A stretch of DNA of 63,340 bases, counting the filler, from Asterionella formosa (Eukaryota): the NCBI GenBank assembly GCA_002256025.1. It is 2 parts of 2 records of this genome, joined end to end, with 100 filler letters (N's around TTAATTAATTAA, not from the genome) between each part and the next. Parts side by side here need not be neighbours in the genome. Positions count along the whole stretch, not along the records: positions 1 to 31,645 come from NKIB01000618.1; 1 more part is not named here. The stretch is one strand, 5' to 3'. This document shows, piece by piece, positions 2,131 through 57,399 of the stretch. The position numbers were made by a program, and so were the translations under genes. Numbering within the stretch: position 1 is the stretch's first letter; each line of letters opens with the position of its first letter. The notes below the pieces were generated by a model. It saw only the letters and a list, made by a program, of their open reading frames with translations, was not told the origin of the DNA and searched no databases.

Positions 2131-4071
2131 CTTGATAATTTGAATCCATCTGTGTGTGCACAAATCAAAGGAAAGGTATTTGTTTCGAAAGATAAGCCTG
2201 TATGCTATTGTTTCAGGTCTCTCATGACCACCAACAAAGTAACAACACTACTGCTGTCTGCTAACAGTACTAGTAGTCATTTATTGTCAACATACTATAT
2301 ACATGTTGATATACACCAGTATATTGAGTGATGCTCAATTTAATCCTACATACCGGTATGAGCATAACAGGAATACATGGTACCAGGGGAGTTGGGAGGT
2401 AAAAGACGGCTTTTAATATAAGAAAAACGTAGCTAAATTACTCATTTACCGCAACTTGCAGGTACCTGTTACCGCATACCATAGTCTGTAGCAGCAGTCT
2501 ACATGATCATATTCATGTTTTAGTATAATTTATGTGTTCTAAACCAAAATTTAATTCACTTCTGATTAAATGGTTTATGTGATGCAACCAATGTGGTGGT
2601 GTTGGTGTTTGTGTTATTGTCATTGCATTCATCCATGACAAACATGAAATCGAAGTCCATTGTGCAGTGATGGGTGTGAAATCGTTGTTGTATCTTCATT
2701 GCAACTACTGTATGATCTTATTTGAGACATTCCTGTACAGTTTCAACTCCAGCTTGCCCACTATCAAGCTCAAGAGTATGAAACCATTGGTCAGGTAGGT
2801 GTGGATCTCTGTGCCCTGCTACACAAAAAGTTCATACTATGTAAAGCAAATTGTGTCGTCCTGTGCCGCTTCCAGTGTTTAATAGTAGCACTAATCATGA
2901 AGGAAAGAAAGCTATTTGAAGCAGCACAGGAGGATGTTCTATTGTTGAGTAAAGCAACAGAATATTAACAACATGGTGGATGTGATTATAACATGCCAAT
3001 CCAGGCGCAAAATATTATACAACATAGGTTGGGTTTATGCTAATACTGGGCCTACATGCACGGCGGATGTACCCGGTGGCCCCAAAAATCATTGCATCCA
3101 GCCATAAACAAGGGTCATTCAGAAAATCTATTCTTATTTGCAAGTTAAGTCGTTGTCATCAAATTCTAGTCGCCTTTAGCACGCAAGGTCGAGTCGCTCG
3201 CAGTCAGCAAGTTCTGGTCATAGTCAGCAAATTCTAGTCATTGTCAGCAAGTTCCAAACATAGAAAGGTAGGATTCCTATGTGGATTCAGAAGACGGTTT
3301 GCTTACTGAACCCGATCATCACTCAGCAAATCAGAGTCGTGTTCAGAGACTGACTCTGCAAATCGTCATCGGTCAATAAGTAAAGTTTTCCTAAATTACT
3401 TGAAGAATTGTTTTCATCTGAAAGCTGTCCGGCAGGCATGAGACGATCCTCTGGGACTGTGTCGAAACTGAAAAGGTGCGCATAAAACGTGCACTACCAG
3501 ACCTTCCTGATTTACAGGTACATCTGTTCATCATACATAGACCTACATACCCGTATTATGCATACCTCAAGTTTTCTGATCCCCCCAAATACCGGTACCG
3601 GTATACTAACAACGGAAGCCACAATGAGAAGCCATTTTGTTTGCTTTCTATGATGCCAACTAATATGAAGCTATCAGCGAGCAGTCCATCCTCAACTTCA
3701 AGGAGCAGAACAGGATCCACGAACATACTATCCCTTCAGTCTTATGTCGTATACAAAAAAATCGAGGAATTCTTTGGCATCATGATTGTTTGACATCACT
3801 TCATTTCTATCTAAAATGTTTAACATGTACTCATAGTTTGTTGCAGCACTCAAACAATTGCGGTGGAAACTCACAAATTGACTCCTTCATTGACCATATT
3901 GTCGACTTCTTGGGATGATGTAAGTAGAATACCGTTGATAGACAATGAAATGCCTAGCAGGACGTCGTGATCCACTATCCATGTGTGTACCTTGATTTGA
4001 CGAACCTCATAATTCTCGTAGCCCTAACATGACACTCCTCCTTTCATCTTTTGTCGCAAAACAGAAAGACT

Positions 4072-6502
4072 ATGTGGACTCCCCCTCCCACGCTTGTGGA
4101 CGAGGCCAATGAAACTACCTCACTTCTCAGGACCAGTCAGAAACAAATGACGTCAAATGACAACGATGACCATGAAGTGGTCACCATCATTTACAGGTTG
4201 TTTACTGTTCCACACCGTTACCACCAGCACCCTAAGACTATTCCCGCACTGTGCCCTGAGTTTCGAGGCCGTCGCCATCGTAATCTAAACGTTTGGCGAC
4301 TTAACGAATTTCGTCACTGGTGGAAGTCCAGTCGTTTGTTGGTTAGACTGGTCGGGAGCTACGAATGGTGCCACGATGTTGTTCACTGGACCTTGATGGC
4401 GACTTTCAAAGTGACTAAGCAAAAGGGGGCAAAACATGCTTTCAGACAGTATAAAGCAATAGGTCGGGGCGGCCCGAACACTGACTTTTTATCCGATGTC
4501 AAGCCTTTTACTAGAAGTATTCGTATTATCCTTGCTGTGTCTCGTGCATTGGAAGCAAGAGTGGACAATCGCTTGACTGAAGTGGGCATGGCCGAAGCCA
4601 TGGCATTCATGGGAAATCGCTGCTTTCGTCATTGGGCGCGTTTTTTTGCGGATGCAGCGACAAAGCATGCAGCCTTTCCGATCAGTGCCAAGTATATTGC
4701 TCCATTTCTGGACCAGAGGAGCCGACCTGTGATTGTGTTCATGGGTGTGGTGAGTAATGCAAAGCTTCAACAGATGCTAAAGTTGCGGCGTTGACTCAAT
4801 TACACTAACCAATCACCCATTTCAGCTTCGAGCCATCCTTCCCTTTGCGTCCTCCTTTCAAGGAAGTGCTTTCGGTCGCAAACTCACGTTTAATACCTTT
4901 AGTGCCTTCAACTATCGTTGGAGACCTGTACAAGGAATATTTCATTTCCACGAAAAGTCAGGTTCATACCAAGACGTTGACCCTGACCAGGAGCTCTTTA
5001 AATGTGCATGTCAGGTGGCTGTGGCTATTGGTCATGGTGTGGACCCAACCGAGACACGCGCAAACCTTAAGTCACTTGATTTTCATGTGATAGGGGCTGG
5101 TTCTGGAGGATACGCCAGATATCAAAAGTCGACTGCAGGGATTATTATTGTACTTCACGTCACGCCGTATGGTCCTAGTGTGCTTGACGAAATGCCCCGC
5201 TACATAATTATCGAGCGCTTCAGAACCTTGGGTGCTTCCAACAATGCCATTGTCAATGCCGCCATCACTTCCGAGGCGGAGCTCCAAGGCTTTACCTATA
5301 GTGGTGCTTTCTTTACAAGTCAAGAGTGGGCAGCCCTCAAAAAACGGTTCGACGATGAGTTGTTCGACTACAATAATGCGTGTCGAATCATGGGAACACC
5401 AGGCTCTCACATTGATAGCACAAAATTACAGCATAATGAGATTGCCTTCCCTCCAACGGACTTGCTCACTTTGAAGACATTCATTCGCACTGGGCAGGCT
5501 CCTCGGCAACGTAGAAAATCAGATAGACGCTGGCACCAGATCAGAAAGAAAGTTAACGAGATGGCCAAGTTGTTGCAAACCTATCAACAAGACAACAAAG
5601 CTCCCGCGGGCATTATTTTGTACATGGAGGGCTTGGACTGTGCGGGCAAGTCTAGCACTGGTGGTCTTATCATGGACGCTTTGGAACAGAGTGGATACGC
5701 GGTTGACATGCGACAGCACAACACTCCTCCCACCGAGGAGCAAAAAATGCAGGCATGGATGAAACGCTTTGAAACACCTTTCGAAGTAAACCCAGATGCT
5801 CGCTATTCAGCCCTTATTTGGGATCGCGGTCCAAGCGGCGACTTTGTTTATGGCAACTTGGATAAACTTCCATTGAACCAAAAACTGGAACGTTATCAGG
5901 AATTTTGTGATTTCGACATGAATTGTCAGCAGAGGAATATCCTCTTTTGCAAGTTGTTGTTTGTCAGCGATAAGGATTCCATCGCATCCACACTGGGCAA
6001 GCGTCTTGCTCACAAAAAGATTGCTCGCGACTTGAGAACATGGCTAGACGCCAACTCCATTCCAACGACCCGTGAAGGACTAGATGCCATTGAAGCACAT
6101 ATCGATCCCACTGATTTTGTCGCTTTCAACAAGTTTTATGAAAATCTTTCCAAGTTTTCTGAATTTTCTCGTAACACAGACACCGATTCACTTGGTGGAG
6201 GGAAGAAAAATGGCTATGACAATCCGTGGCTGGTCGTTAGTACCAGCAAACGCCATCCTGCACGCCTGGGCTTAATGGCTAACTTTGAGAAGCAGCTGAA
6301 GAATTTCTCCCGGCAGGCAATCGTCAAGTCAGCTGAGGCAAATTTTGACCCCGAATCGATGCCGTTGCGTCGCTCTGTTCCAAGTAATATTGTTGAAGAG
6401 AGGGAACATGGAATTTCCTCGCGAGCCATCTTGCAGTCCCTCTTGTTGCTTTTTGTGGTATACGCTTATGCACATCAGACTTGGACATTTGGTTGGGATT
6501 AG
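4072..6502 (+). CDS. PPK2: Polyphosphate kinase 2 (PPK2)-domain protein with a long unknown N-terminal region and a C-terminal TM helix. Exons 4072-4749 and 4826-6502; a small upstream exon 3945-3982 with intron 3983-4064 is possible.
   Basis: Intron 4750-4825 (GTGAGT...CTAAC...TTCAG, phase 0) joins ORFs 4051..4794 and 5015..6502 in frame. PPK2 motifs: Walker A EGLDCAGKSST, PTEEQK..WMKRF, Walker B WDRG, DPTDF, TDT...PWLVV...ARL. Hydrophobic tail AILQSLLLLFVVYAYA. Confidence 0.85.
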
Positions 6503-6547
6503 TATAGTCTAATGAGGTAGAAAAAGTTTAAGTTCATATTGATTCGT

Positions 6548-7246
6548 TTATAAGACTTTCTCGTCGATCCAAAGGTTTATGATACTAGCGACCTCACTGT
6601 CGCTTTTGCCCTCGACCTCGGTTACGGTGACTGGACCAAACGGCCCATCTGGATCTGAGTGCCGGGCAGCGATCCGAAATGAATCATGAATGCAATCTAA
6701 CCTAGTTGATAGTACCATTATGGGAAGCACTCCAGGCTCGAGCAGAAGGGGACGATCCTCCGCGCCTAAGCGAATGCGATCTAGAAGTTGCTGTTGAATA
6801 GCGTCGTGTCGATAGACTGACTTGAGATCACAGGCACTAGTTTGCGTAATTTCAACTGGATCAACCATGACAAGGCCACTCAGTGGCAAACTTTCGAGAT
6901 AGTATAATGCAAGCCAGGAAATCAAAGGGCCTTTCGAAATGAGAACAACATTCATTTCAGAGGCCAAATCTTCCTTCATTTCATCAAGACCTGCCGTCAA
7001 AGAAGTGAACTTACGAAGCTCCATACATCGAAACTGGATTCCGTAATTTTCAGGAAACCTTCGACTGAATGTGCGCTGCCAAGAAGCACCATCATAAAAG
7101 CTTCGATCATCCGCCGACACAACCATGCAGGGCCTTTCTCGGATATCGGAATCCAGAGGTACATCTACGGTCAATGTCATCAGGCTTCTACAGGAAGGAA
7201 TAGCGCAGGATCTTTTGACCATCTCGAGTTGGAGGTGGCGCTGCAT
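6548..7246 (-). CDS. Hypothetical protein, alpha/beta-hydrolase-like fold
   Basis: Open 232-aa ORF convergent with PPK2. The segment VVLISKGPLISWLALYYLESLPLSGLVMVDP matches the nucleophile-elbow strand-helix-strand pattern, but lacks a canonical GxSxG. Confidence 0.55.
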   Translation of the reverse strand: MQRHLQLEMVKRSCAIPSCRSLMTLTVDVPLDSDIRERPCMVVSADDRSFYDGASWQRTFSRRFPENYGIQFRCMELRKFTSLTAGLDEMKEDLASEMNVVLISKGPLISWLALYYLESLPLSGLVMVDPVEITQTSACDLKSVYRHDAIQQQLLDRIRLGAEDRPLLLEPGVLPIMVLSTRLDCIHDSFRIAARHSDPDGPFGPVTVTEVEGKSDSEVASIINLWIDEKVL

Positions 7247-8470
7247 TGTTGAAACATTTCCAAGTAGTAGACTTATGGAAATGTTGTCGTGTGCACCTTT
7301 GTCGTCATCAAGAAGGAACAGAGAATATAAGAAATGTTAGAAAGTCGAACACAAGGAACATGCAAGGCAATTCTTGTTTTTGGATGAGTGATATATGATC
7401 TTGAAATCCAATCTAATACGGAGTACCAGATACCTGTTACCCAACCGTGGTACCACGTACTGCTAAATATTTACCGATACCGTACTCACCGTTATGTTCT
7501 TGTGCAACCAGGGTACCAGGTACCAGATACCAGTAAAGACCTGATGTGACCCACTGAGCAAACTGGAGAAAAACACGGTTTGCCCCCACCAAATGCGTAT
7601 CATAAAAGTTAATTTTAAAACTTTGACCCAAATCCTGAGAATGTACCACAGAAAAACTTCCTGGAGTTGTGCATGAAGAATCACAAAGTGAAATATTATT
7701 GCTGACAATGGAAGGTATAGAAAATTAGCTACAGATATAGCAGAAACAATCATGATTCTTCCATTACTACTATGATTACATCTACAAGTTCTAGTCTAAC
7801 TCCTACTACCAGCACCACTACAGCATCAACTGAAAGCAGCACCACCATACTTCCACTACATCACTGCCCTGCTATCATGGTGATTGTCCAAAGGGAACAA
7901 GAACCACAGTAGCCAGCTCCATAATAGAACATCAATTGTTTCTCCAAATTGACATCATGACACCATTTGATTGAAGTTCCAGTATAGCCATTGTGATTTT
8001 CTTTACAATCAAAGTAACCAGACCAAGAAGGGAGGATTCTTTTGGAAAGGGGTTTCTCTTTTTCAGTTCCATGTATATCAATTGCTACTTCCTTGTTAGA
8101 ATAATTTGGGCCTAGTCTGTTGCTCTTGACTGTATGAAAAAATATAATCATCAGTGTGTCAGAGCAAATCATGTGCTCTAGTAATTAGCTAACTTGAGCT
8201 TAGCCTAGCTTGTTCCTATTGATTGTCAACAGAATATTATCATCAGTGTGTCGGAGAAAATCATGTTCTCTTTTAATTAATTAACTGCTCTTTTAATTAA
8301 TTAACTGCTCATCATTAAATCAGTAGCCTCATCCGTTGTTAGTAGGGGTCTCTTACTCGGCATTCTTGGCACCTATCCTCATTTTGGTATTTAACGAAAA
8401 CTGTTTGATATTGTTTGATTCTTGCTGCTGTCCAGCAATCATAACAGCTTGCGCTTCATTGTTCTTCGCT

Positions 8471-11098: not shown

Positions 11099-13740
11099 CT
11101 ATTCATCTCCTGCGCTATAAGCTGGCTCCTCTTCAATAATAACGGGCTCCTCGACGACATCCATGTCATCGATACACCCCGGGCAATTGGCCTCGATCAC
11201 AGAAGCTACCATAGGAGACTTCTCCTTAGCCCCTTCGACTGCCCCAGCAGCAGCTGCCTCCATCAAAGTTAGCTCACCGCCTCCTCCATCATCTCCATTA
11301 GCATCCAAATCGTCCTTCTTCTCCCCAGCTGGAGAAATCCCAAGTTGTAGTAAGGCAAGCTCTTCTTCGTTCTCTTTCAAACCCTTCAAACTCAACACTT
11401 GTTTTCGTTTAGTCTCGAGGATGGCGTTGATCTCTTCGGCTGGGTATCCAAGACTTCTCAGCACAGCACCACCAAATGGCAACGTCATGAGAACATTGTC
11501 TTCTGGCAAGATCGGCACCATGGCAGCAACATCAAGTGTTGTTTGCAATCGGTTCGCATGGTCGGCATTGACAGCACGAGCGAAGATCTTGACTTTGGGG
11601 TAAAGTCGACGAAGTGCAATTACAACTCGAGTGCATTGAGATCTGTCAGAAATGCAAACAATCACTGCTTTGGCGCTTCCTACATTGAAAGCCTCCGCAA
11701 CTTCAGTTCTTGCGATATCTCCATAGAATACAGGAAGACCCAAGTTGCGTGCTTGAATAGCCTTGTTGGGATCCACCTCGAGACCCACATACTTATACAG
11801 CTTGCGGTCTAAGAGATCGCAGACAACCTTACCCACAGCACCATAACCAACCACCACAGCAAAGTCATCACTTGCCTTGATCTCATTCGCGTCACGATCT
11901 TGTCCAAGATAATGAGTGAAATCACTCTGTTCTTCAAGTCTCTTGGCAATCTTGCCTCCGATGGAAGCCAAGAATGGCGTGACCGCCATCGAGAGAGCCA
12001 CACTAGTTAATAAAAGCTTTGTTGTCGGTTTATCTAAGATTCCAAGCGATCGAGCCAACCCGAAGGCAACAAAAGCGAATTCACCACCCTGAGCGACCAT
12101 TAAACCAGTTTGCTGCGAAGTTGACAATGAAAGTCCAAATGCAAGCGATAATGCTGTGGTAATGATGGCCTTCGTACTGATAATTCCCATCACAATTGAC
12201 CCAACAAGAGGCAAATTTCCAGCTATCAACCCCACATCAATTTCAAATCCAACAGTGACAAAGAAGAGACCCAAAAGGATTCCACGGAAAGGGGCGATAT
12301 CAGCTTCAACCTGGTAGCGATATTTTGTCTCCGACAAAAGAACACCTGCCAAAAATGCTCCTAATGTGTTGCTCAGTCCGAGGCCTTCAGTTAGGAAGGA
12401 CATGGACAGAACAGTCAAAAGAATAACGCCAAGAAATGCTTCCTGCGATTTAGCCTCAGCAACTACTTTGAACAAAGGATTCACCAAGTATCTTCCAGCC
12501 ATTGTAATTGCGCCAAGTGCCATACCTGCCTTGATCACAGCACTTGTGAGTGCATTCGCCAACCCAGATCCTCCGCCTGCCAAGATGGGAGTAACTACTA
12601 ATAGTGGAACAACAGCTAAGTCTTGGAATAAAAGCACCCCAAAAGATGCCTTCCCGAACCGAGTAGCAAGCTGCTCCTTGTCCTTGAGGAGTTGCAACAC
12701 AAAAGCAGAGCTTGATAGAGCAAGCCCTCCACCCAAGACAACACAAGCGGGGGCAGGCAAACCACAAAGCGCGCCAATGGCTCCAATCACAGCGGCCGAA
12801 ATCGTGAATTGGCTAAGGCCTAGTCCAAAAACATCCTTTCGCATGCTCATGAGGCGTTCGACACTAAGCTCAATGCCCATTTCAAATAAGAAAAAAACGA
12901 TTCCCAACTCAGCAAGGGTTTCGGTGGTATGAATACCACTGATCGTTCCCCAACCGTTTGGACCCATCATCATACCTGATGCCAAGAATCCCAGGATTGG
13001 CGACACTCGCATTCGTTGGCAAAGAGGAGTGACTAGCGCCGTTGCTAACAAAAGCAACAAAGTATCAGACTTGGGACCTTTCATAAAATTAGATAGATCA
13101 GATAAGCCCTCTTGAAAGGTCTTAGTTGTCTCTCGTGTAGCATCCTGTACAAGGTTTTCAGCCTTTTGCAATGCGGTCTCAGATGTCGAGCTTTTATCCC
13201 AAAAATTTACCGCCTTTGATTTCGCCTGTCCTCCACGAGCCTGCAAGCCAGATCCTTTCTGGATCATATGCATTTCAGGTTGCTGAGACTGGCTGTTGTG
13301 AACGTACTGATTGATGTCATGTCGCGAGCATAAGAGAACGGACAATGCCAGAGCTGCCGCTGTGAGGAGATTTCGTTTCTTGGCTTTCTGCCACATTAAA
13401 ATCTTTTGAGCCATGACTTTTGCTCGTGAAATGATTTTTCGGCAAGAACTTTGACCGCATTGTAGTAGTTGTTTGCGTCGGGACTTCACAAGGGCGAAAT
13501 GATCGTTAGCGTTTGAAGCTCAGTCCAGACAAATCTCGGGGTAAGATCTTATCTTACCATTTCACCCTGATCTGATCCAGTCATATAGAGCGTCTGTCGA
13601 CTGCGAACATCGTTATTCACCAGGCCTGCCATGGGCGCTCGAGAGTTCCGCAGTCCCGCCGAAGCTACTGGCGTCGTGAAGGCCTCACATCCAAGGGTGA
13701 GGCCAAAATAAATCAGTGCTAGCGGCGACACAATCTTCAT
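11099..13740 (-). CDS. Plastid-targeted KEA/KefB-type K+/H+ antiporter (CPA2 family plus KTN/TrkA-N domain); exons 13740-13558 and 13483-11099
   Basis: Exon 1 encodes a signal peptide and AF motif (MKIVSPLALIYFGLTLGCEA-FTTP). Intron 13557-13484 (GTAAGA...GCTAAC...AAG, phase 0). CPA2 motifs LAELGIVFFLFEMGIEL, LLFQDLAVVP, FRGILLGLFF, QGGEFAFV; KTN motifs VVVGYGAVG and FYGD. Confidence 0.92.
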
Positions 13741-36009: not shown

Positions 36010-38565
36010 CTATGTTGTATGCAAATAATTAGATCCAATCTCCAGGTCTGCACTTGACGAGCGCTGAAGTGGGTTGGAGTGGTTTCGAGGTTTCGGGTGA
36101 CGAAGAATGTTCTGGAGAAAGCACAGGTAAACCGGCACGACGCCGTCATCGCCTCCAGCAAATTCTTGTATTTTCAGCCTTCGGAGCTGAGATGCAGAAA
36201 ATGGGGCCAGAGTTAGCAACATAAAAACTGTGGGGATAAGTAGAAGATACGTTTTTCGGCTGACTAGTCCAATTCGCTGAGCCTTCGCCAAAACTAATAG
36301 GCTGACTTCAGAAACCTGGGCCATGGCACTTCCGACAGCCAGTGATGAAGTGATGCTGTAGTCAAAGACTCGGTTAAGGGTCGTTGCGACAACAGCAAGC
36401 TTAAAGAGGCCAATCAAGAGAACAAGTTGAATAATTTCACCAGCATGGCTCAATACGAAAGTTGGGGATAGAATTGTCCCAAGGGACGTCAGGTACATGC
36501 CGCCAAAAACACTGGTAATGGGTGCGATCGATGCAATAACTTTGGGAACGTACGGGGATCGCATCAAAGCAATTCCGGCTAGGACAGCACCGGCTTCGAT
36601 AGAAAGTTTCAGTTGATCTGACATCGTAGCAATCAGGAGGGCATAGGCTACCACACTCAAGGTGAAGAGTTCGCTCTTTTCTCCAACCATCCGAGCTTCG
36701 GCAAGGTTAGCAGCGCTGATAATATTCTTAGCAAGAATCATTGATCCCCGTAAGAAAACTGTGGCAACACCTATCCGACAGAGAATATTTATGGCTGCAA
36801 AGAGTGCAAAATTCTCCTTCGATTCCTTCACGTTGTCCCCGGTGTTAAAATGGTTGACAGATGATAAGAGCTCAGGTAGTGCAAGTAAGGGAACCATGAA
36901 GAGGTCGTGCATTGATATCACCTTTAACACGCCTTTTCCCCAGTGCGTGTCAGCTATTTTTGCTACGTGCAAGTTTTCGCTCACGATAGTTGTACTGCAT
37001 ACTGCAATGGCACAGGAAACAATGACAGCCTCGGGAATGGATACAACAACTTCAGTTAACCACACAATGGCAGCAGCGAAAAAAATTAATAGAACTAGCA
37101 CGACACATCCAACAACATTAGGGTCGCGATCCGAATCCAAGTTCGAGCTGCTGGTCGCTTTGACCAGCTCCGGTTGGGAAATGCTCCTTCGTCCCAGCCT
37201 TCTGTAATAAAGCGTATTATCGGTGTTACTTTGACCAGAAGTAGGTGAGCTGCCAATCGATTTCTCGTCTTCGTTGTCCATGTAATGGAATTCCTCGGCA
37301 ATCGAGCTCACGATTAGGGGATCCCCAGAGTATGTCAGAGAATATAGCAAACCTTGTTCAAAAAGCAGAAAGATAACTCCAAATTGAGCCAAAGTCTGTA
37401 CTTGATGTATTTCGCCAATCAGTTCCAAGCAGCTCGGTCCAATAAGCATGCCGCCCATCAGGAAACCAGCAGTTGGTGGAAGCTGCATGAATACGGCAGC
37501 CAGTCCAAACAACGAGGCTGTCATGGCCAATTTGACGATATCGAGCAAAAGTTGAAAGTCCATCGACAACACTGCAGGATCAGAGTCAGAACGGATGGAT
37601 TTGATTTCTTCCCTGACTCGAATCTTGAGATCTGGATTATCTTCTAGTTGTTGGATGACATTTTCAGATGCCTTGGCCTTTTCAGTCACGGCCTTGTCGT
37701 CGTCATTGTTGGCAGCGTCAGGTTTCAAAACAGAAGCAGCAGCATCTACTATCTCATTGAGTGCCTTTTCATCCTCTCCGTTCAGTTTCTCCTCTTCTAC
37801 TTCTTCTTTCATTGTGGTTGCTTCCTTCGCAGAAACAAAGGTTGAGTCTGAAGTACTAGCATCGACAACAGACGCTGCGTCTGAGGTTGACAAGTTCGAA
37901 ACTTCTCCTACATCATTTTCAGACTTATTTCCTTCTTCAAAAGCAGCGGATCGTCGTTCCCGCCTTTTTTCCTTCAGTGGACTAACTAGTTGACCGGTGA
38001 CATAATCAACTTTCAAGTTCAGAGTTCCTCGATGTAAGCCATCAAGAATTTTCTCTGTCTCCATCTCCGCATTTTTCTTTTTCATCACCTTTTCTTCGTT
38101 ATCCATCTTTGCTTTGGCTCTACTTATCTCCTCTTCGGCAGATTGAATTGATTCAACCAAGTCGTAAATATCAGTTTTGACTTGAATCAAATCTTGATCC
38201 AAGGTATCATTGGATATCTGACGTTTTCTTTGAGCTGTTGCAAATGAGTCCCGAACGTCGCTAGCAGCTGAGGAAACCCGTGCGTGTGCATCAAGCTCCA
38301 CCTTTTGTAAATCTTTCTCAAGCTTCTGCTCGAGATCATGAAGCTTGACACCCCAAAGCTGAGCCGTGGAATCTGGTGCAGTAGATTGGGAAATTTGGAT
38401 TTGCTGCGATACGACGGAAGTTTCTGAGTTTATGGATGCCGTGGAAACATATTCAGAATAGGTTTCTGTTACGGTCAAGGCAAGCAACACCCATAAGCAC
38501 GAGGGTCGAGGAACTCCTTTGACTGATGCTAATGTTCTTCGATTACACTTCCGTTTGTGGTGCAT
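36010..38565 (-). CDS. CPA2 cation/H+ antiporter, TMCO3/KEA4-6-like, with an N-terminal signal/anchor and coiled coil
   Basis: Motifs DPAVLSMD, GFLMGGMLIGP, QVQTLAQFGVIFLLFEQGL, STTIV, SMHDL, LSIEAGAVLAG, AQVSE; no KTN domain. First ATG at 38565 (the track ORF opens at GTG 38601). Confidence 0.85.
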   Translation of the reverse strand: MHHKRKCNRRTLASVKGVPRPSCLWVLLALTVTETYSEYVSTASINSETSVVSQQIQISQSTAPDSTAQLWGVKLHDLEQKLEKDLQKVELDAHARVSSAASDVRDSFATAQRKRQISNDTLDQDLIQVKTDIYDLVESIQSAEEEISRAKAKMDNEEKVMKKKNAEMETEKILDGLHRGTLNLKVDYVTGQLVSPLKEKRRERRSAAFEEGNKSENDVGEVSNLSTSDAASVVDASTSDSTFVSAKEATTMKEEVEEEKLNGEDEKALNEIVDAAASVLKPDAANNDDDKAVTEKAKASENVIQQLEDNPDLKIRVREEIKSIRSDSDPAVLSMDFQLLLDIVKLAMTASLFGLAAVFMQLPPTAGFLMGGMLIGPSCLELIGEIHQVQTLAQFGVIFLLFEQGLLYSLTYSGDPLIVSSIAEEFHYMDNEDEKSIGSSPTSGQSNTDNTLYYRRLGRRSISQPELVKATSSSNLDSDRDPNVVGCVVLVLLIFFAAAIVWLTEVVVSIPEAVIVSCAIAVCSTTIVSENLHVAKIADTHWGKGVLKVISMHDLFMVPLLALPELLSSVNHFNTGDNVKESKENFALFAAINILCRIGVATVFLRGSMILAKNIISAANLAEARMVGEKSELFTLSVVAYALLIATMSDQLKLSIEAGAVLAGIALMRSPYVPKVIASIAPITSVFGGMYLTSLGTILSPTFVLSHAGEIIQLVLLIGLFKLAVVATTLNRVFDYSITSSLAVGSAMAQVSEVSLLVLAKAQRIGLVSRKTYLLLIPTVFMLLTLAPFSASQLRRLKIQEFAGGDDGVVPVYLCFLQNILRHPKPRNHSNPLQRSSSADLEIGSNYLHTT

Positions 38566-39346
38566 TCTGTTGCGCAATGTTCTGGACAAAAGAATGTGCA
38601 CGCTGTTAATAGCTGTACCTGATGGTCAAGTTTTGCGCCACGCTGGATGAATGGGGTTTCCACTCCTCTGCTGATCAAGGATGATGATGGAATGTGCACT
38701 GCTATTTAATTAATAGCTGTACCGGTACCTGATTGGCAACCTGCGCGCCATGTGCGCTGATTACCCATCATCACAACAAGAAGAGATGTCTGTATGTACT
38801 GCACATACAACATGACAGAGACCCACTCCTATGTACGACGAACTTTCGTCAATTCGCTCGTGGTCATGATACCAGGTACCAGCTGGGACCATCGTTCTAT
38901 ACATCCATACCGCTATGTATGCATAAACGACATGCTACCGGTATTGACTCTTCGTGATAAAGGATTTTGTATTTATGTACACGAACCACATACCAGGAGT
39001 ACTTCATGTCCAAGTAGCTGGGACTGGTACTGAGGTACTGGTACGGAGTACCATACCAACCACACTGGAGGTCCCATGCATTGCACGTATAATTACACAG
39101 GTAATAGATAGGCCTTCATGAGCAAATCCTCCAAATCGTAAACCAGCGACGACATTATCAAGGGTCAACGCCATGATGGTTCCATTAGTCTAGTCTATCT
39201 ACTCCACCGTCTCTAATATCATTTGAAAGGGAGAGAAAAAACACCTTGCAGACAGCAGAGAACTGTGCATGAAACTTAAAAGGATTTTGAACGTCCTTAT
39301 AGAATAAAAGGACAACGACATCCTCGCACCTTATCAAGTTATTGCT

Positions 39347-53240: not shown

Positions 53241-55745
53241 TCATCGCCTATATCCAGATGCTGTGAAGATTTCAACATCCAGCGAGTACGAAAAGTACTT
53301 GAAGGTCTTGTCTGCAACGTGCTCATCAAATCCGTGCGTTTCGCATGAGCCTTTTGTCAATTGGAGACCAGCTAGGCGCTGCGCACCAAATACTACCCCT
53401 CGTGTGGCCAAGTGTGGAACACAAAACTGGGCACAGAGGTCGTTACTTCCACCCTCTTCAAGGATTCGGTCTCTGTTAGAATAATATTCGTAAGTGATCT
53501 TGTTCACTTCGTCTGAGTACATTAAGTCGCAGCCAGTAAAGAAAGCTTGCAAGTATAATTCCTTCGGATGAGGAAGCCCGAGCAATATTATCACAAACAA
53601 GATCACATAAAGACCAGCAACTGTATATAGAGGCTTGCGCCTTAGATAAAAATCGGGACTTGCTTGCTTGAACTCTGTAAGTCCAGCTTCACTTGTATTT
53701 TCAGAGTGTGCACCAAGCGAAATATCGAATAGGGCAACCGCTGAGCCAGCACCAATCAAAATTGCAGAAAATAACATGAGCCAAGAGTTGAATGAGAAGG
53801 CGAGAGAACAACACGCGAACATGAAGAATGTCATTGTTGATACACCACAAGCTGGCCCTTTAGTCACTCGCAATACCATTACGTAAAATGAATTTAGGCC
53901 CAAAACCAATGCCATACTAGAGCAGCTGGCCCCGTTGGCGAACGTTGCGTAGAGAAGGTTGGATCCGAGCAGAACAAGAAGGCAAGCAATCAAGAATCGC
54001 CATTTCAAGAGTTGCTCTAGGGGCCGAGCACAAACCCAGAGAGAAATTATGACGAAGCAATATGTTAAGATACCGCTGCATAGAAAATTGGAGGTCAGCA
54101 GTCGGTATATTTGGTTCTGGTATACGACCATGGATGGGTTGTTTATACCGAACCTGCTCAGGACGATGGCAGTGGGCCCTATGGAGGGATTGTTCAAGGG
54201 ATGCGCGAAGCTGTTAGAAAAAATCATTGTCCAAAAGTAAACTGTTGTCGTCAGCATGTAGCCTATTGTTATAGGAAAATTTTTGAACCTCAGAAGGAGC
54301 GCGATGATGACAGTTGAGCACGACGTGTTCCGAGCGTGGACGTCGTCCTTAATCAAATAGTCGTCATCAACACGTATTGTGCGCTCTTGATGAACCTTGT
54401 AAAAGATAGCCATCGTTAAAATCAAACCAATAAATATGGACGAGACAAAGAGAGGAATGGCTGGTCCAGATCGACCGACTAAGCGCTCCTCTCGAAATAT
54501 GTTGCTGGCCCATTCTTCAAAGCCATCAACTTGAAGGGGATAGTACAAGCCAAAGCTGCAGTGTCCTTTGTCCTCAATAAAGAAAGACTTGACGTTCTTG
54601 TGCTTAAATTCAATGCTATTGACTGAAGCGCTGAGGTCGTACCACCACTGCTGATTAGCATCATTGCCGTCTAGTCGCCTATCTCTAGCATCATCACCAT
54701 AGTCGCCTGCATTGTCATCTTCGTTGTTGACATCATCGTCATCGTTGTCACTATATTCTTCACCGTTACCACTCATCCATTTGTAGTATAATTGAGATGT
54801 CTCATCGTTCGTATGAGAGACAAAACCCCAGCTGTCCCGATTAGAACCTCGCTTCAAGACATGGTCCCAAACTTTAGTAGGATACTCCACAGAATATCGC
54901 CATTTTTGGTAGTGGAAGCCTATTCGATCAAGAATAGGCCAAGGATTCCAGTTGCTTAATGCATTCTTGAGAAAATACTTCGGCGTCAAATAGACAGGCG
55001 AGTCAATAATAGTATTGACTTGTGTCGTTCGAACACCAAACTTGTTGTAGTGCTTATTGAGCAAATCGTACACAACCGGAAGCGATGTCCCTCCAGCGGA
55101 GCAGCCTGTCAAGGCAATGTGATTTGGATTCGGAAAATTGGCGAAAATCCAGCGCAAGGTGCCCATCATGTTGTGGGCTCCCTTGTGAAGAACAGTACTG
55201 TCCCCACCATAGGTAGTGGCATTGCTTCCCAAGTGAACGTCTTGTGTACAGTACGGAACAACTACAGTGTTGTATTCTCGAAAGTCAACATCCCCAACCT
55301 TTCCAGCGCATAGCATATTGATTGGAAACTTGCTGTTCAGGTCCGAAACTCCCTTTGCGATCTCACTGCATGAGAGTCCCACAAATTTGTTGAATGCATA
55401 CGGAAACGATAAATGGGATGACATATATCCGCAGGTATTGGCATCCCAACAAGCTCCCCCTCCCATAAATTCGATCAAAAGCTTTTCGTTATTAGCATAC
55501 TTTTGAGCAGGCCTGCTAAAGAAAAACGCAAAGTTCGTGCCATCCCCGCATTGGGGCTGACCAAAGCTTTGCGAGGTTTGGTCCGGGCAAATTTTGTAGA
55601 ACTGGTTTGGAGTCAATGTCGACAGTTTCTGACTAGTTGAAACTGAATCAGAATCACATCCACCACCATAACTTGTTCTATCGCTATAATCTTCGGCTTG
55701 AACATAACAACAAAGGATGAGATAGAAACCAAAGATAATTCTCAT
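53241..55745 (-). CDS. Pectinacetylesterase/Notum-family esterase fused to a rhomboid-like multi-pass membrane domain
   Basis: Signal peptide MRIIFGFYLILCCYVQA. Esterase motifs CGDGT, EFMGGGACW, PYCTQDVHLG, GCSAGG and GHC. A TM helix follows, then rhomboid-like NPSIGP...QIYRLLTSNFL...LEQ..W.FL...GAS. Confidence 0.85.
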   Translation of the reverse strand: MRIIFGFYLILCCYVQAEDYSDRTSYGGGCDSDSVSTSQKLSTLTPNQFYKICPDQTSQSFGQPQCGDGTNFAFFFSRPAQKYANNEKLLIEFMGGGACWDANTCGYMSSHLSFPYAFNKFVGLSCSEIAKGVSDLNSKFPINMLCAGKVGDVDFREYNTVVVPYCTQDVHLGSNATTYGGDSTVLHKGAHNMMGTLRWIFANFPNPNHIALTGCSAGGTSLPVVYDLLNKHYNKFGVRTTQVNTIIDSPVYLTPKYFLKNALSNWNPWPILDRIGFHYQKWRYSVEYPTKVWDHVLKRGSNRDSWGFVSHTNDETSQLYYKWMSGNGEEYSDNDDDDVNNEDDNAGDYGDDARDRRLDGNDANQQWWYDLSASVNSIEFKHKNVKSFFIEDKGHCSFGLYYPLQVDGFEEWASNIFREERLVGRSGPAIPLFVSSIFIGLILTMAIFYKVHQERTIRVDDDYLIKDDVHARNTSCSTVIIALLLRFKNFPITIGYMLTTTVYFWTMIFSNSFAHPLNNPSIGPTAIVLSRFGINNPSMVVYQNQIYRLLTSNFLCSGILTYCFVIISLWVCARPLEQLLKWRFLIACLLVLLGSNLLYATFANGASCSSMALVLGLNSFYVMVLRVTKGPACGVSTMTFFMFACCSLAFSFNSWLMLFSAILIGAGSAVALFDISLGAHSENTSEAGLTEFKQASPDFYLRRKPLYTVAGLYVILFVIILLGLPHPKELYLQAFFTGCDLMYSDEVNKITYEYYSNRDRILEEGGSNDLCAQFCVPHLATRGVVFGAQRLAGLQLTKGSCETHGFDEHVADKTFKYFSYSLDVEIFTASGYRR

Positions 55746-57399
55746 TGTTGCCCATTGTCGATTCAGTGTCAAAAACTGGTAGTCGTTTTTTGTTCTTTTG
55801 AAGGATTTTTATTGAATACCGATTTTATGAATATTCCGGTTTATATATATACATTGCCTGATTTCAATATTGATTCAAAGAATTATTACGTATCCTATTT
55901 GATGTAGACTACCAGGTACCAGGTTCTACAAACAAAACGGTATTTAGCTGATTATGGAGGAACGGCGGTGCCGCGCCGGCTAACTCCATCAGTACGACTG
56001 GTACCGGTTTCCTGATGCACAAACAAGTACAGAACGACAAGAATCCTTTCTTTTACCAACTCCGTATACCATTTCCCGCAATATGTTACACATGTGTTGA
56101 TAAATTGTCCAGCTGTCTAGTAGTACGACTTTTCTTCCCCCTTCTAAAGACAGCAGCCTCCAAGTTTTTGGGCAAGAAGAACTTGGTGGTGTGGCTGGTA
56201 CTGCACGAAAATATCAGGAACCAATGAAATGGGAGCCTCCGAAGCCCTTATTCATTTCACTACTACTAGTACTGTACCAATTGGTCACCAGGGGCAGAGA
56301 AGAACAACGATGTAGTCCCAGAGAAGCTTGAGTCTAACCCGCCCCTTGTCACCGAGAACAAGCAAGAAGAAACTATTAGGAGGATTTACCCCGATTGTTT
56401 AAAAAAACCAATGGACGAAGATGCAGGAAAAAGCGCAAAGAAAACCTTGCCCTAGGTAGGGCACCTAAGTCAATGGCCCCCATATTCATCACTAAGGGGG
56501 GGGGGGGATAAAGAAGAAAGCAAAATGTATTCTTGATGTTGCCAATAATGAGATGGTGAGTTTTATGTCGTACTCCTGCTACGGCCCCCCAGCAAGAAGG
56601 ATGAAGATGGGAAACCACCTGGAAAGACAAAGAAAAAAGGAAAAATGAATAGAGTGAGGCTGAATGATTTCATGGTGATCTTTGAAAGGAAATATATACA
56701 TATATTATCCATTTATTCATTAGGTTACTTGTGGAAATTCACATTACGTGATGTATTAGTACTGTGTTTTGTGCATGCATCTCTCAAATCTAAAAATGTG
56801 AACAATGTAGGCCAAGTTTGCTGAGGGTCAACTTTTAACATCGACCCAGGATTTCGTCCAATACTAGTAGTAGGTATGACAACGGTAGGAGCATAAATAC
56901 CGTCCACAGAGACAAACATTAGCTGTTTCCTCTTTACAGATTCATAAACCATCAGTTGAGCAAGCTCAAACATTTGAGAACGCCGGCTTTTAAGCATACT
57001 CTCACATGGTTCCTTACATGAGTTAACAATTGCAAAGGAACCAGTTTTTTCGTTTCAGAGTGACGAACACAATCATGAATCACTAAAATCAAAGTAGGCC
57101 AAAGCAATACAAAACCGAAACTTTTCCCAACATAATCCTACTACCACTTCCCTGCTTGTCTATCCATTTGAACTCGGCCCAACCATAGCACCAAGACCCC
57201 TGTCCCAATTAACTGGTGGGATTAGCAGCATGGAAATTATTTCTATCTCATTTGTGTTCATACATGACCTCAATTGCCGTGATGGTTATGAAGGGAAGCA
57301 ATAAGTATCCTAAACAAGGTCCACTCCGGATGACTTCTTTATTGCCGCCGAACTGGAAGTGACAGGAGGCGATGACCATTCACCATTACTTTCGTTTAA

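Follow-up and report, generated by a model that had tools for sequence, protein, structure and literature searches.

An intron-bearing gene of the diatom Asterionella formosa for a candidate membrane-anchored protein of the polyphosphate kinase 2 family

We analyzed a window of 63,340 nt of DNA from Asterionella formosa (assembly GCA_002256025.1), in which translation revealed two long open frames on the + strand at 4072..6502; this part of the window (positions 1–31,645) comes from NKIB01000618.1. Joining position 4749 to position 4826 keeps the frame and gives one protein of 226 + 558 = 784 residues, with a kinase domain of the polyphosphate kinase 2 (PPK2) family in its C-terminal part. Taken as a whole, the evidence is best explained by a nuclear, intron-bearing and expressed gene of a freshwater diatom that encodes a membrane-anchored PPK2-family protein, and we put the probability of this explanation at roughly 0.6. 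As judged from sequence comparisons, the additions seen only in diatoms are a helical bundle of ~200 aa (net charge ~+21) and the hydrophobic helices at residues 219–237 and 758–779. An earlier note on this DNA, made from the sequence alone, had proposed a domesticated, tail-anchored PPK2; this proposal is partly supported, in that the gene is a domesticated member of the PPK2 family in diatoms.

Results

A PPK2-fold kinase domain with a conserved catalytic set

According to its structural model, the C-terminal domain of 250 aa (residues 486–735; 5603..6352, +) is a P-loop kinase that has the PPK2 fold, and its catalytic residues are all in place. The Pfam family PPK2 (PF03976) matched exon-2 residues 233–383 with 29.6 bits (cut-off 22.3, E 6e-7); the score of the stored protein P0001, whose numbering is used here, was 28.9 bits. 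When a profile of 44 homologs was compared with PDB, 3czp was retrieved first (E 5.5e-5), followed by 3rhf, 5o6k and 9gia, and thymidylate kinases appeared only at E above 0.4. The AlphaFold2 model that was computed from the 44-homolog alignment had a mean predicted local distance difference test score (pLDDT) of 84.5 and a predicted template modeling score (pTM) of 0.82. A Foldseek search of PDB with this model gave 48 matches at E ≤ 1e-3, all to PPK2 among the matches listed. VIA-align, run against 48,161 chains, placed 6aqe at Z 16.6 (233 aligned residues, root-mean-square deviation 3.2), 3czp at Z 15.6 and 4yeg at Z 14.1, and the next matches were other P-loop kinases (APS, dTMP and adenylate kinases) with Z 8.6 or less. 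The assignment to PPK2 made in the earlier note is thus borne out by a Pfam score above the cut-off and by two structural searches that favor PPK2 over other P-loop kinases.

The motif set listed in the same note is also present in full. Walker A reads EGLDCAGKSS (5627..5656, +), with G495, L496, D497, C498, K501, S502 and S503 invariant in the 44 homologs; in the alignment, the corresponding segment of 3czp is EGNDAAGKGG. Walker B reads WDRGPSGD (5819..5842, +) and was located by HMMER alignment to 3czp, where it is FDRSW. In this region D559, R560, G561, P562 and G564 are invariant. The C-terminal PPK2 motif, NPWLVVSTSKRHPARL (6224..6268, +), aligned to APWTLVEANDKRFARV of 3czp, and K618, R619, W694, R702 and R706 are conserved in at least 90% of the 44 homologs. 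The lid (5993..6118, +) consists, according to the alignments, of LGKRLAHKK, an insertion of ~25–30 residues, and HIDPTDF. Its GKRL segment (K618, R619) aligned to the region of the first lid Arg of the PDB PPK2s, the second basic motif was unaligned, and in the profile alignment the PDB PPK2 matches break exactly at the insertion. The lid of solved PPK2s is described as having conserved basic residues that bind polyphosphate, such as R178 of the Francisella enzyme, in which Walker A K66 and Walker B R118 are, together with R178, needed for polyphosphate binding and activity (PMC8776046).

In one diatom-type relative, P0139 (571 aa), GLDCxGKS is replaced by GIATTNKV and WDRGP by WNHGP, and this protein gave no Pfam PPK2 hit. 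P0139 may be a pseudoenzyme paralog, and its degenerate motifs are, at the level of sequence, an illustration of what loss of the catalytic residues looks like.

PPK2 class and domain number

The residue that follows Walker B is reported to set the PPK2 class, with Asn in class I, Gly in class II and Glu in class III (PMC8776046). In the HMMER alignment, DRGPSG stands against DRSWYG of PA3455/3czp, which puts G564 at the class-signature position, a class II-like feature that consists of this one residue. None of the NCBIfam class models TIGR03707, TIGR03708, NF050016 and NF042973 was reached at its cut-off, with matches of 12–27 bits compared to cut-offs of 300–800. The best of them was TIGR03708, with 26.9 bits against 547.65. 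A second PPK2 domain of the PA3455 type was not found, as there is a single Pfam stretch and the upstream domain is modeled as an antiparallel α+β domain. For the same two reasons, the α+β domain was rejected as a degenerate second PPK2 domain.

Bacterial relatives and the origin of the gene

A phmmer search with exon 2 against 1.84 billion representatives returned only 188 proteins at E ≤ 1e-3. Since the PPK2 family is very large, most canonical PPK2s were presumably not reached. The non-diatom matches were mostly ~400–570 aa long, with a few of 620–1200 aa, and covered query residues from ~150–210 to 495 at 21–38% identity. Two of the ten bacterial-type representatives carried organism names, a Deltaproteobacteria metagenome-assembled genome (MAG; MBI4818970.1, on a 72.8-kb contig) and a Myxococcales MAG (MCA9555172.1). 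The motifs of the bacterial members are GPD[GA]AGKSSTG, FWDRGPAGD and FGKRLAR, with an insertion before (K)IDxxDF, and in 28 aligned bacterial-type sequences the Gly, Asp and Lys of Walker A and the Asp-Arg of Walker B are invariant. Each of the 11 bacterial members compared with Pfam matched PPK2, the lowest E being 2.6e-25. In PDB, a profile of the bacterial proteins matched PPK2s exclusively at E ≤ 1e-3 (18 sequences), with 3czp as the best (1.1e-17); it matched canonical PPK2s on either side of the lid insertion, not across it.

The diatom and bacterial alignments were matched by hhalign with a probability of 100 and E 8.8e-61 over 375 columns, corresponding to diatom residues 299–726; phmmer alone extended the shared region back to approximately residue 371. 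Judging from the hhalign span, the bacterial proteins have the kinase domain and the linker in common with the diatom proteins, and the α+β domain at least in part. On the basis of these alignments, the bacterial proteins link the diatom proteins to canonical PPK2, and both groups belong to a small, distinct PPK2 clade marked by a WDRGPAGD Walker B and a lid insertion of 25–30 aa, in which the members outside the diatoms are soluble and typically ~450 aa long. Three bacterial-type members have long N-terminal extensions, namely P0250 (1206 aa), P0222 (974 aa) and P0247 (1153 aa), and P0250 combines DUF4781 with the PPK2-like part.

A quick maximum-likelihood tree was calculated from 52 chosen rows (19 diatom-type and 33 bacterial-type), leaving out most family members. 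The diatom rows fell on one side of a branch with a Shimodaira–Hasegawa-like approximate likelihood ratio test (SH-aLRT) value of 100 and a stem length of 2.06. The other 33 rows are deep, and Ala, Arg, Gly and Pro make up ~0.4 of their residues, as in high-GC bacteria. The simplest reading of these sequences is a single transfer from bacteria to an ancestor of diatoms. The tree of 52 rows is unrooted. In a metagenome scan, four loci were found at 28–31% identity; in two of these (L002 and L004) the gene is split over several frames, as in eukaryotic DNA.

Within the diatom part of the tree, the raphid pennate Amphora clusters with the centric Cyclotella, and Thalassionema clusters with Ditylum; both pairs are separate from the Fragilaria/Nitzschia group. 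This pattern is a hint that diatoms have at least two old paralogs.

Gene structure and splicing

Splicing was assessed with Logan contigs from four runs of four studies, placed on positions 3900–6700. Three of the four runs are recorded as RNA, two of them polyA-selected, and the fourth is only guessed to be RNA. Intron 2 (4750..4825, +; 76 nt, GT..AG) has the ends GTGAGT and TTTCAG and contains CTAAC at 4805–4809. It was skipped in all four runs, with the joint at 4748/4825 ("cut +1"), and the same junction, ...FMGV/LRAIL..., is found in P0001 (784 aa, three differences from the window product). The splice that the earlier note had predicted from the sequence is therefore real. A further protein, P0002 (75% identity), which was predicted with a gene finder for prokaryotes, continues through an intron at the place of intron 2.

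Intron 1 (3920..4064, +; 145 nt, GT..AG) is defined by the joint 3919→4065, which is present in contigs of two of the four runs (X1 and X5). It is retained in the X7 contig, and the X6 contig starts downstream, at 4091. An ATG at 3915–3917 is in frame with the main open frame across this joint, and an in-frame TGA is located at 3891–3893. Together with two further bases at the end of the upstream exon (3915..3919, +), this probable true start adds MIKT before the start at 4072. P0279 (788 aa, same 90% cluster) begins with MIKTTWTPPP, with Thr at the position of the Met that is encoded at 4072 in the window; therefore, P0279 uses the upstream ATG. The exon with the ATG that was read first, at 4072 (4065..4749, +), encodes residues 1–226, and the last exon (4826..6502, +) encodes residues 227–784 and the TAG stop codon (6500–6502), both according to translation and RNA contigs. 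The true coding sequence is probably 3915–3919 + 4065–4749 + 4826–6502, i.e., 788 aa. The gene is thus an expressed nuclear gene with spliceosomal introns, in agreement with the intron-containing eukaryotic gene of the earlier note.

The 5′ leader in the RNA contigs runs beyond 3900, with ~216 more bases in the X1 record. In addition, TTTGTTGCAG, which ends at ~3848, resembles another 3′ splice site, upstream of 3849–3919. In P0087 and P0083, the prokaryotic gene call leaves the family sequence right after WDRGPAGDF, which suggests a further intron at this place in some diatoms, not in the window gene.

The N-terminal domains

In the AlphaFold2 model, residues 1–55 are disordered, residues 72–254 form seven helices, and residues 261–415 form an α+β domain with an antiparallel sheet. 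They are followed by linker helices (427–481), the kinase domain (488–730) and a final helix (758–779). The helical module (residues 60–255; 4249..4912, +, including intron 2) is predicted with pLDDT mostly above 90 and is strongly basic: for its 196 residues, the median net charge in the 44 homologs is +21. Among its 40 positions that are at least 90% conserved, Arg or Lys account for 14 and His for one (R81, H82, K85, R88, R92, K128, R148, R151, R158, R167, R183, R186, R190, R228 and R244). The α+β domain (residues 256–420; 4913..5407, +) carries GxGSGGY and TPYGPS, which are invariant in the alignment. The linker helices (residues 421–485; 5408..5602, +), one of which leads into the PPK2 core, are also basic (median net charge +9 in the homologs) and align with the bacterial relatives.

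No Pfam or NCBIfam hit was obtained at E ≤ 1 in exon 1, nor in exon 2 before its residue 233 (protein residue 459). When exon 1 was searched among longer proteins, 29 matches were found, at least 26 of which are family members; 23 were also hits of exon 2, three (P0310–P0312) were hits of the Cyclotella homolog, and the remainder were P0307–P0309. A separate model of residues 53–459 (pLDDT 83.2, pTM 0.60) gave no Foldseek match in PDB at E ≤ 1e-3. In the VIA comparison with the 48,161 chains, nothing reached Z 8 or more, and the best matches were at the level of noise, with Z 7.2 for the helices (MxB/dynamin stalk) and Z 6.5 for the α+β domain (pseudopilin); this model of 407 residues spans two domains, so that a weak match may have been missed. 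ESM Atlas offered no usable match for the region. Homology to SPX or CHAD was considered for the helices and set aside for lack of evidence: no Pfam family matched exon 1 at E ≤ 1, and neither domain is among the 50 best structural matches. A fold search of the predicted N-terminal structure, as the earlier note had advised, thus matched no known fold. Its description of ~450 aa of novel N-terminal sequence is correct for the helical module of ~200 aa, for which no match outside the family was identified, but not for ~130–190 aa of the α+β domain and linker, which are common to the bacterial relatives.

Two conserved hydrophobic segments

The C-terminal hydrophobic helix (residues 758–779; 6419..6484, +), a candidate tail anchor, was recognized in the AlphaFold2 model and by Kyte-Doolittle analysis. 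The segment 755–778 has a Kyte-Doolittle value of 1.62, and the median of the best 19-residue window in 40 homologs is 1.85. Five residues follow the helix, and within the first 200 residues all windows stay below the threshold of 1.3, so that no hydrophobic N-terminal signal is seen. The second segment, residues 219–237 (PVIVFMGVLRAILPFASSF; 4726..4858, +, spanning intron 2), was found by Kyte-Doolittle analysis with a value of 1.76 (median of the best 19-residue window 1.78 in 43 homologs). The remaining helices are much less hydrophobic (0.58 and 0.78). The earlier note had described a single hydrophobic helix before the C-terminus. This helix is present and conserved, but it is not the only one. 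Likewise, the proposed tail anchoring agrees with the C-terminal position of the helix, the five residues after it and the lack of an N-terminal signal, but must be set against the equally hydrophobic internal segment.

Distribution among diatoms and expression

Members of the family were identified in no fewer than 16 named diatom taxa, which include centric as well as pennate forms. The nearest named relative is Fragilaria crotonensis, with 60–62% identity. Other named members come from Fistulifera solaris, Nitzschia (three entries and Nitzschia sp. RCC80), Mayamaea, Cylindrotheca closterium, Cylindrotheca fusiformis, Cyclotella cryptica, Chaetoceros, Ditylum, Amphora, Thalassionema, Thalassiosira sp., Skeletonema potamos, Attheya and Seminavis. 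The sole eukaryotic label from outside the diatoms is that of P0117, a partial sequence assigned to Symbiodinium microadriaticum, which is placed within the diatom clade with P0110 as its sister (SH-aLRT 99); judging from this placement, it is probably a diatom sequence that contaminates the Symbiodinium assembly. With this diatom-nested row set aside, all organism-named eukaryotic relatives are diatoms, which settles the host that the earlier note had called a diatom-like alga. Phaeodactylum tricornutum and Thalassiosira pseudonana are not among the organism-named matches listed, which is not evidence of absence, as the matches listed are a part of the total and mostly unnamed. Transcripts of the family are present in lake metatranscriptomes.

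In databases, the members are named "hypothetical protein", "Thymidylate kinase(-like)" or, in the automatic JGI annotation, "polyphosphate kinase 2 (PPK2 family)". Full-text literature searches, which left most subscription journals uncovered, returned no paper that describes a diatom PPK2 family. A 2013 survey, as far as its available text goes, lists only two eukaryotic PPK2s, from Ostreococcus tauri and Nematostella vectensis, and reports no PPK in T. pseudonana or P. tricornutum by BLASTp (PMC3680246). In a plume study, "ppk2" was counted among eukaryotic transcripts, and the portion of the article consulted states that no eukaryotic ppk had been characterized (PMC5012681). In the accessible parts of the reviews searched, VTC is the only enzyme named for polyphosphate synthesis in eukaryotic algae, and no nucleotide-linked mobilizing enzyme is named; the word "PPK2" is absent from PMC7332688.

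Discussion

The proposed function and what weighs against it

To our knowledge, every characterized PPK2 uses polyphosphate. By extension from these enzymes, the A. formosa protein would be active and would move phosphate between polyphosphate and nucleotides, possibly favoring the conversion of nucleoside monophosphates into diphosphates, as class II enzymes do, because of its class-signature Gly. The basic helical module could bind the polyphosphate polyanion or the acidic face of a membrane, in a manner analogous but not homologous to CHAD, and the C-terminal helix would anchor the protein with its bulk in the cytosol. The gene would have been taken from bacteria by a diatom ancestor and elaborated thereafter. 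A more specific proposal is that of a dedicated membrane-anchored diatom PPK2, whose bundle holds polyphosphate, or possibly conducts it through the membrane, and which would allow diatoms to connect polyphosphate with nucleotides independently of VTC while conserving energy; this extension we regard as doubtful. If both hydrophobic helices were to span the membrane, the kinase would lie inside the polyphosphate-storing compartment.

Several observations weigh against the explanation of an anchored, polyphosphate-using PPK2. The Pfam match is weak and partial, covering profile positions 5–146 of 229. By sequence, the kinase fits none of the three curated PPK2 classes, and the bacterial relatives also remain below the NCBIfam class cut-offs (e.g., 63.1 bits vs 247.2). 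The lid insertion is large and only the first lid Arg is aligned; therefore, polyphosphate binding could be altered. The tree is unrooted, with two of the ten bacterial-type representatives named, which makes transfer from bacteria a tentative reading; scans of genome contigs gave pattern matches with no confirmed relative, and no bacterial gene neighborhood was obtained. The segment 219–237 is as hydrophobic as the C-terminal helix, which makes a simple tail-anchor topology insecure. A tail anchor would leave the catalytic domain in the cytosol, away from the polyphosphate in vacuole lumens. A cytosol-facing enzyme would thus miss this polyphosphate, and this consideration counts against the earlier note as worded, in which the protein was linked to organellar stores. 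The literature searched also held no activity, localization or regulation data for any member.

Alternative explanations

The PPK2 family is mainly bacterial and the nearest non-diatom relatives are bacterial, so that contamination or a mis-assembled bacterial gene had to be considered. This is refuted by the two GT..AG introns that are removed in polyA-selected RNA contigs, the flanking genes in the same 63-kb window are eukaryotic, and orthologs lie on long diatom contigs, e.g., one of 4.35 Mb in Nitzschia inconspicua; the explanation is left with next to no probability. A catalytically dead scaffold or polyphosphate-binding protein that has kept only the fold would suit the very divergent sequence, the weak Pfam score and the loss of Walker A and Walker B in at least one relative (P0139). 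We consider it very unlikely, as none of the 44 homologs or of the 28 bacterial-type sequences deviates at the Walker A Asp and Lys or at the Walker B Asp-Arg, an invariance in both sets that points to selection on catalysis. The fold could also have been kept with a different chemistry, that of a P-loop kinase or NTPase that does not use polyphosphate, such as an ATP-dependent nucleotide kinase or an enzyme with another acceptor, in which the remodeled lid and the α+β domain would supply a new substrate site. Such a change would agree with the lid insertion of 25–30 aa specific to the clade, with the lack of any curated PPK2 class model above its cut-off, with a weak Thymidylate_kin match (E 0.22) and the automatic UniProt name "Thymidylate kinase(-like)" of some members, and with a conserved α+β domain that matches no known fold or function. 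However, the score of PPK2 structures is about double that of every other kinase (Z 16.6 vs 8.6 or less), the Walker A Asp, the Walker B Asp-Arg, the first lid Arg and PW...R...R are all kept, the added module is strongly basic and would suit a polyanion, and characterized PPK2s use polyphosphate (PMC8776046). On balance, a different chemistry appears improbable, though clearly less so than a dead scaffold.

The same enzyme could also be inserted in the membrane twice, with residues 219–237 as a signal anchor and residues 758–779 as a second span. The basic module would then be cytosolic, and the α+β and PPK2 domains would lie in an endomembrane lumen beside the stored polyphosphate, which would solve the problem of access. 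Both segments are conserved with similar strength (medians 1.78 and 1.85) and were seen only in diatom members, being absent from the soluble bacterial relatives, and the strong positive charge of the flank on the N-terminal side agrees with the positive-inside rule for membrane proteins. Against this layout, AlphaFold2 packs residues 218–254 as one bundle helix of 37 residues with high pLDDT, in a model in which all domains are placed with confidence (pTM 0.82). The segment also holds the conserved R228 and P232, and a lumenal nucleotide kinase would need lumenal nucleotides. We put the tail-anchored topology ahead of the two-pass one, which we hold to be rather unlikely.

Comparison with known systems

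Canonical Walker B motifs read DRSWY, in contrast to WDRGPAGD of the present clade. The diatom protein has the same predicted fold as the canonical bacterial PPK2s, represented by 3czp (C-terminal domain of PA3455), 3rhf (A. aurescens), 6aqe (D. radiodurans) and 4yeg (F. tularensis), and shares with them GxDxxGK, the Walker B D-R, the first lid Arg, PW...R...R and a class II-like Gly. It differs from them in its low identity (~16–19%), the lid insertion of 25–30 aa and the lack of fit to any class. It also has one kinase domain, compared to two in PA3455, and adds the α+β domain, the basic helical module, the candidate membrane anchor, introns and a eukaryotic host. The Myxococcota-type MAG proteins, e.g., the "hypothetical protein" MBI4818970.1, belong to the same clade at 28–38% identity, with the same Walker B, lid insertion and linker and at least the C-terminal part of the α+β domain. 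The aligned members are mostly ~400–500 aa long (some 524–1206 aa) and uncharacterized, and the sequences read contain neither the basic helical module nor the C-terminal hydrophobic helix, nor the GxGSGGY and TPYGPS that are invariant in diatoms.

CHAD domains are described as helical bundles in which conserved basic patches bind polyphosphate with nanomolar to micromolar Kd (PMC6537752). The diatom module resembles them in being a bundle of helices, in the predominance of Arg, Lys or His among its conserved residues and in its occurrence with a putative polyphosphate enzyme, a likeness of presumed function only. It differs in having no Pfam CHAD hit (E ≤ 1) and no CHAD among the 50 best structural matches, and its binding of polyphosphate is a prediction by analogy. 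In the VTC complex, the polyphosphate polymerase of eukaryotes, VTC4 is a triphosphate tunnel metalloenzyme, so that the catalytic fold is unrelated, and no SPX/VTC domain was detected in the diatom protein. Common to both would be a membrane-bound eukaryotic polyphosphate enzyme with a basic helical part, for which the VTC complex is the described example and the diatom protein a candidate (PMC7332688, PMC6537752). The earlier eukaryotic PPK2s of O. tauri and N. vectensis are also encoded by eukaryotes, with a proposed bacterial origin, but are reported to be canonical, intron-less and conserved with Pseudomonas PPK2 along most of their length (PMC3680246). Compared to them, the diatom family is far more divergent, multi-domain, intron-bearing and, as predicted, membrane-anchored.

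A large part of the primary production in aquatic habitats is due to diatoms, and much of their phosphorus is stored as polyphosphate. The family is a candidate for an uncharacterized link between polyphosphate and nucleotides in this major algal group. If active, the enzyme would add a new step to models of diatom phosphorus and energy economy, give a concrete interpretation to counts of "eukaryotic ppk2" in metatranscriptomes, and provide a case in which an enzyme from bacteria was remodeled by adding parts for membrane attachment and polyanion binding that are specific to eukaryotes. The sister group in bacteria, too, is a PPK2 clade that had not been described.

Neighboring genes in the window

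The other large open frames in the window are typically eukaryotic and include an AP mu subunit, Na+/H+ exchangers, a protein with chromo and cupin domains, and NDH2. A convergent open frame of 262 aa (6548–7336, −) lies 46 nt past the stop codon of the PPK2-family gene; it has no Pfam match, and RNA contigs cross the gap. An open frame of 855 aa (53241–55808, −) combines Pectinacetylesterase (residues 86–277) with Rhomboid (residues 565–696), an unusual pairing. Two genes of the Na+/H+ exchanger family are present, at 11099–13519 (−) and 36010–38625 (−), the first of which also carries TrkA_N.

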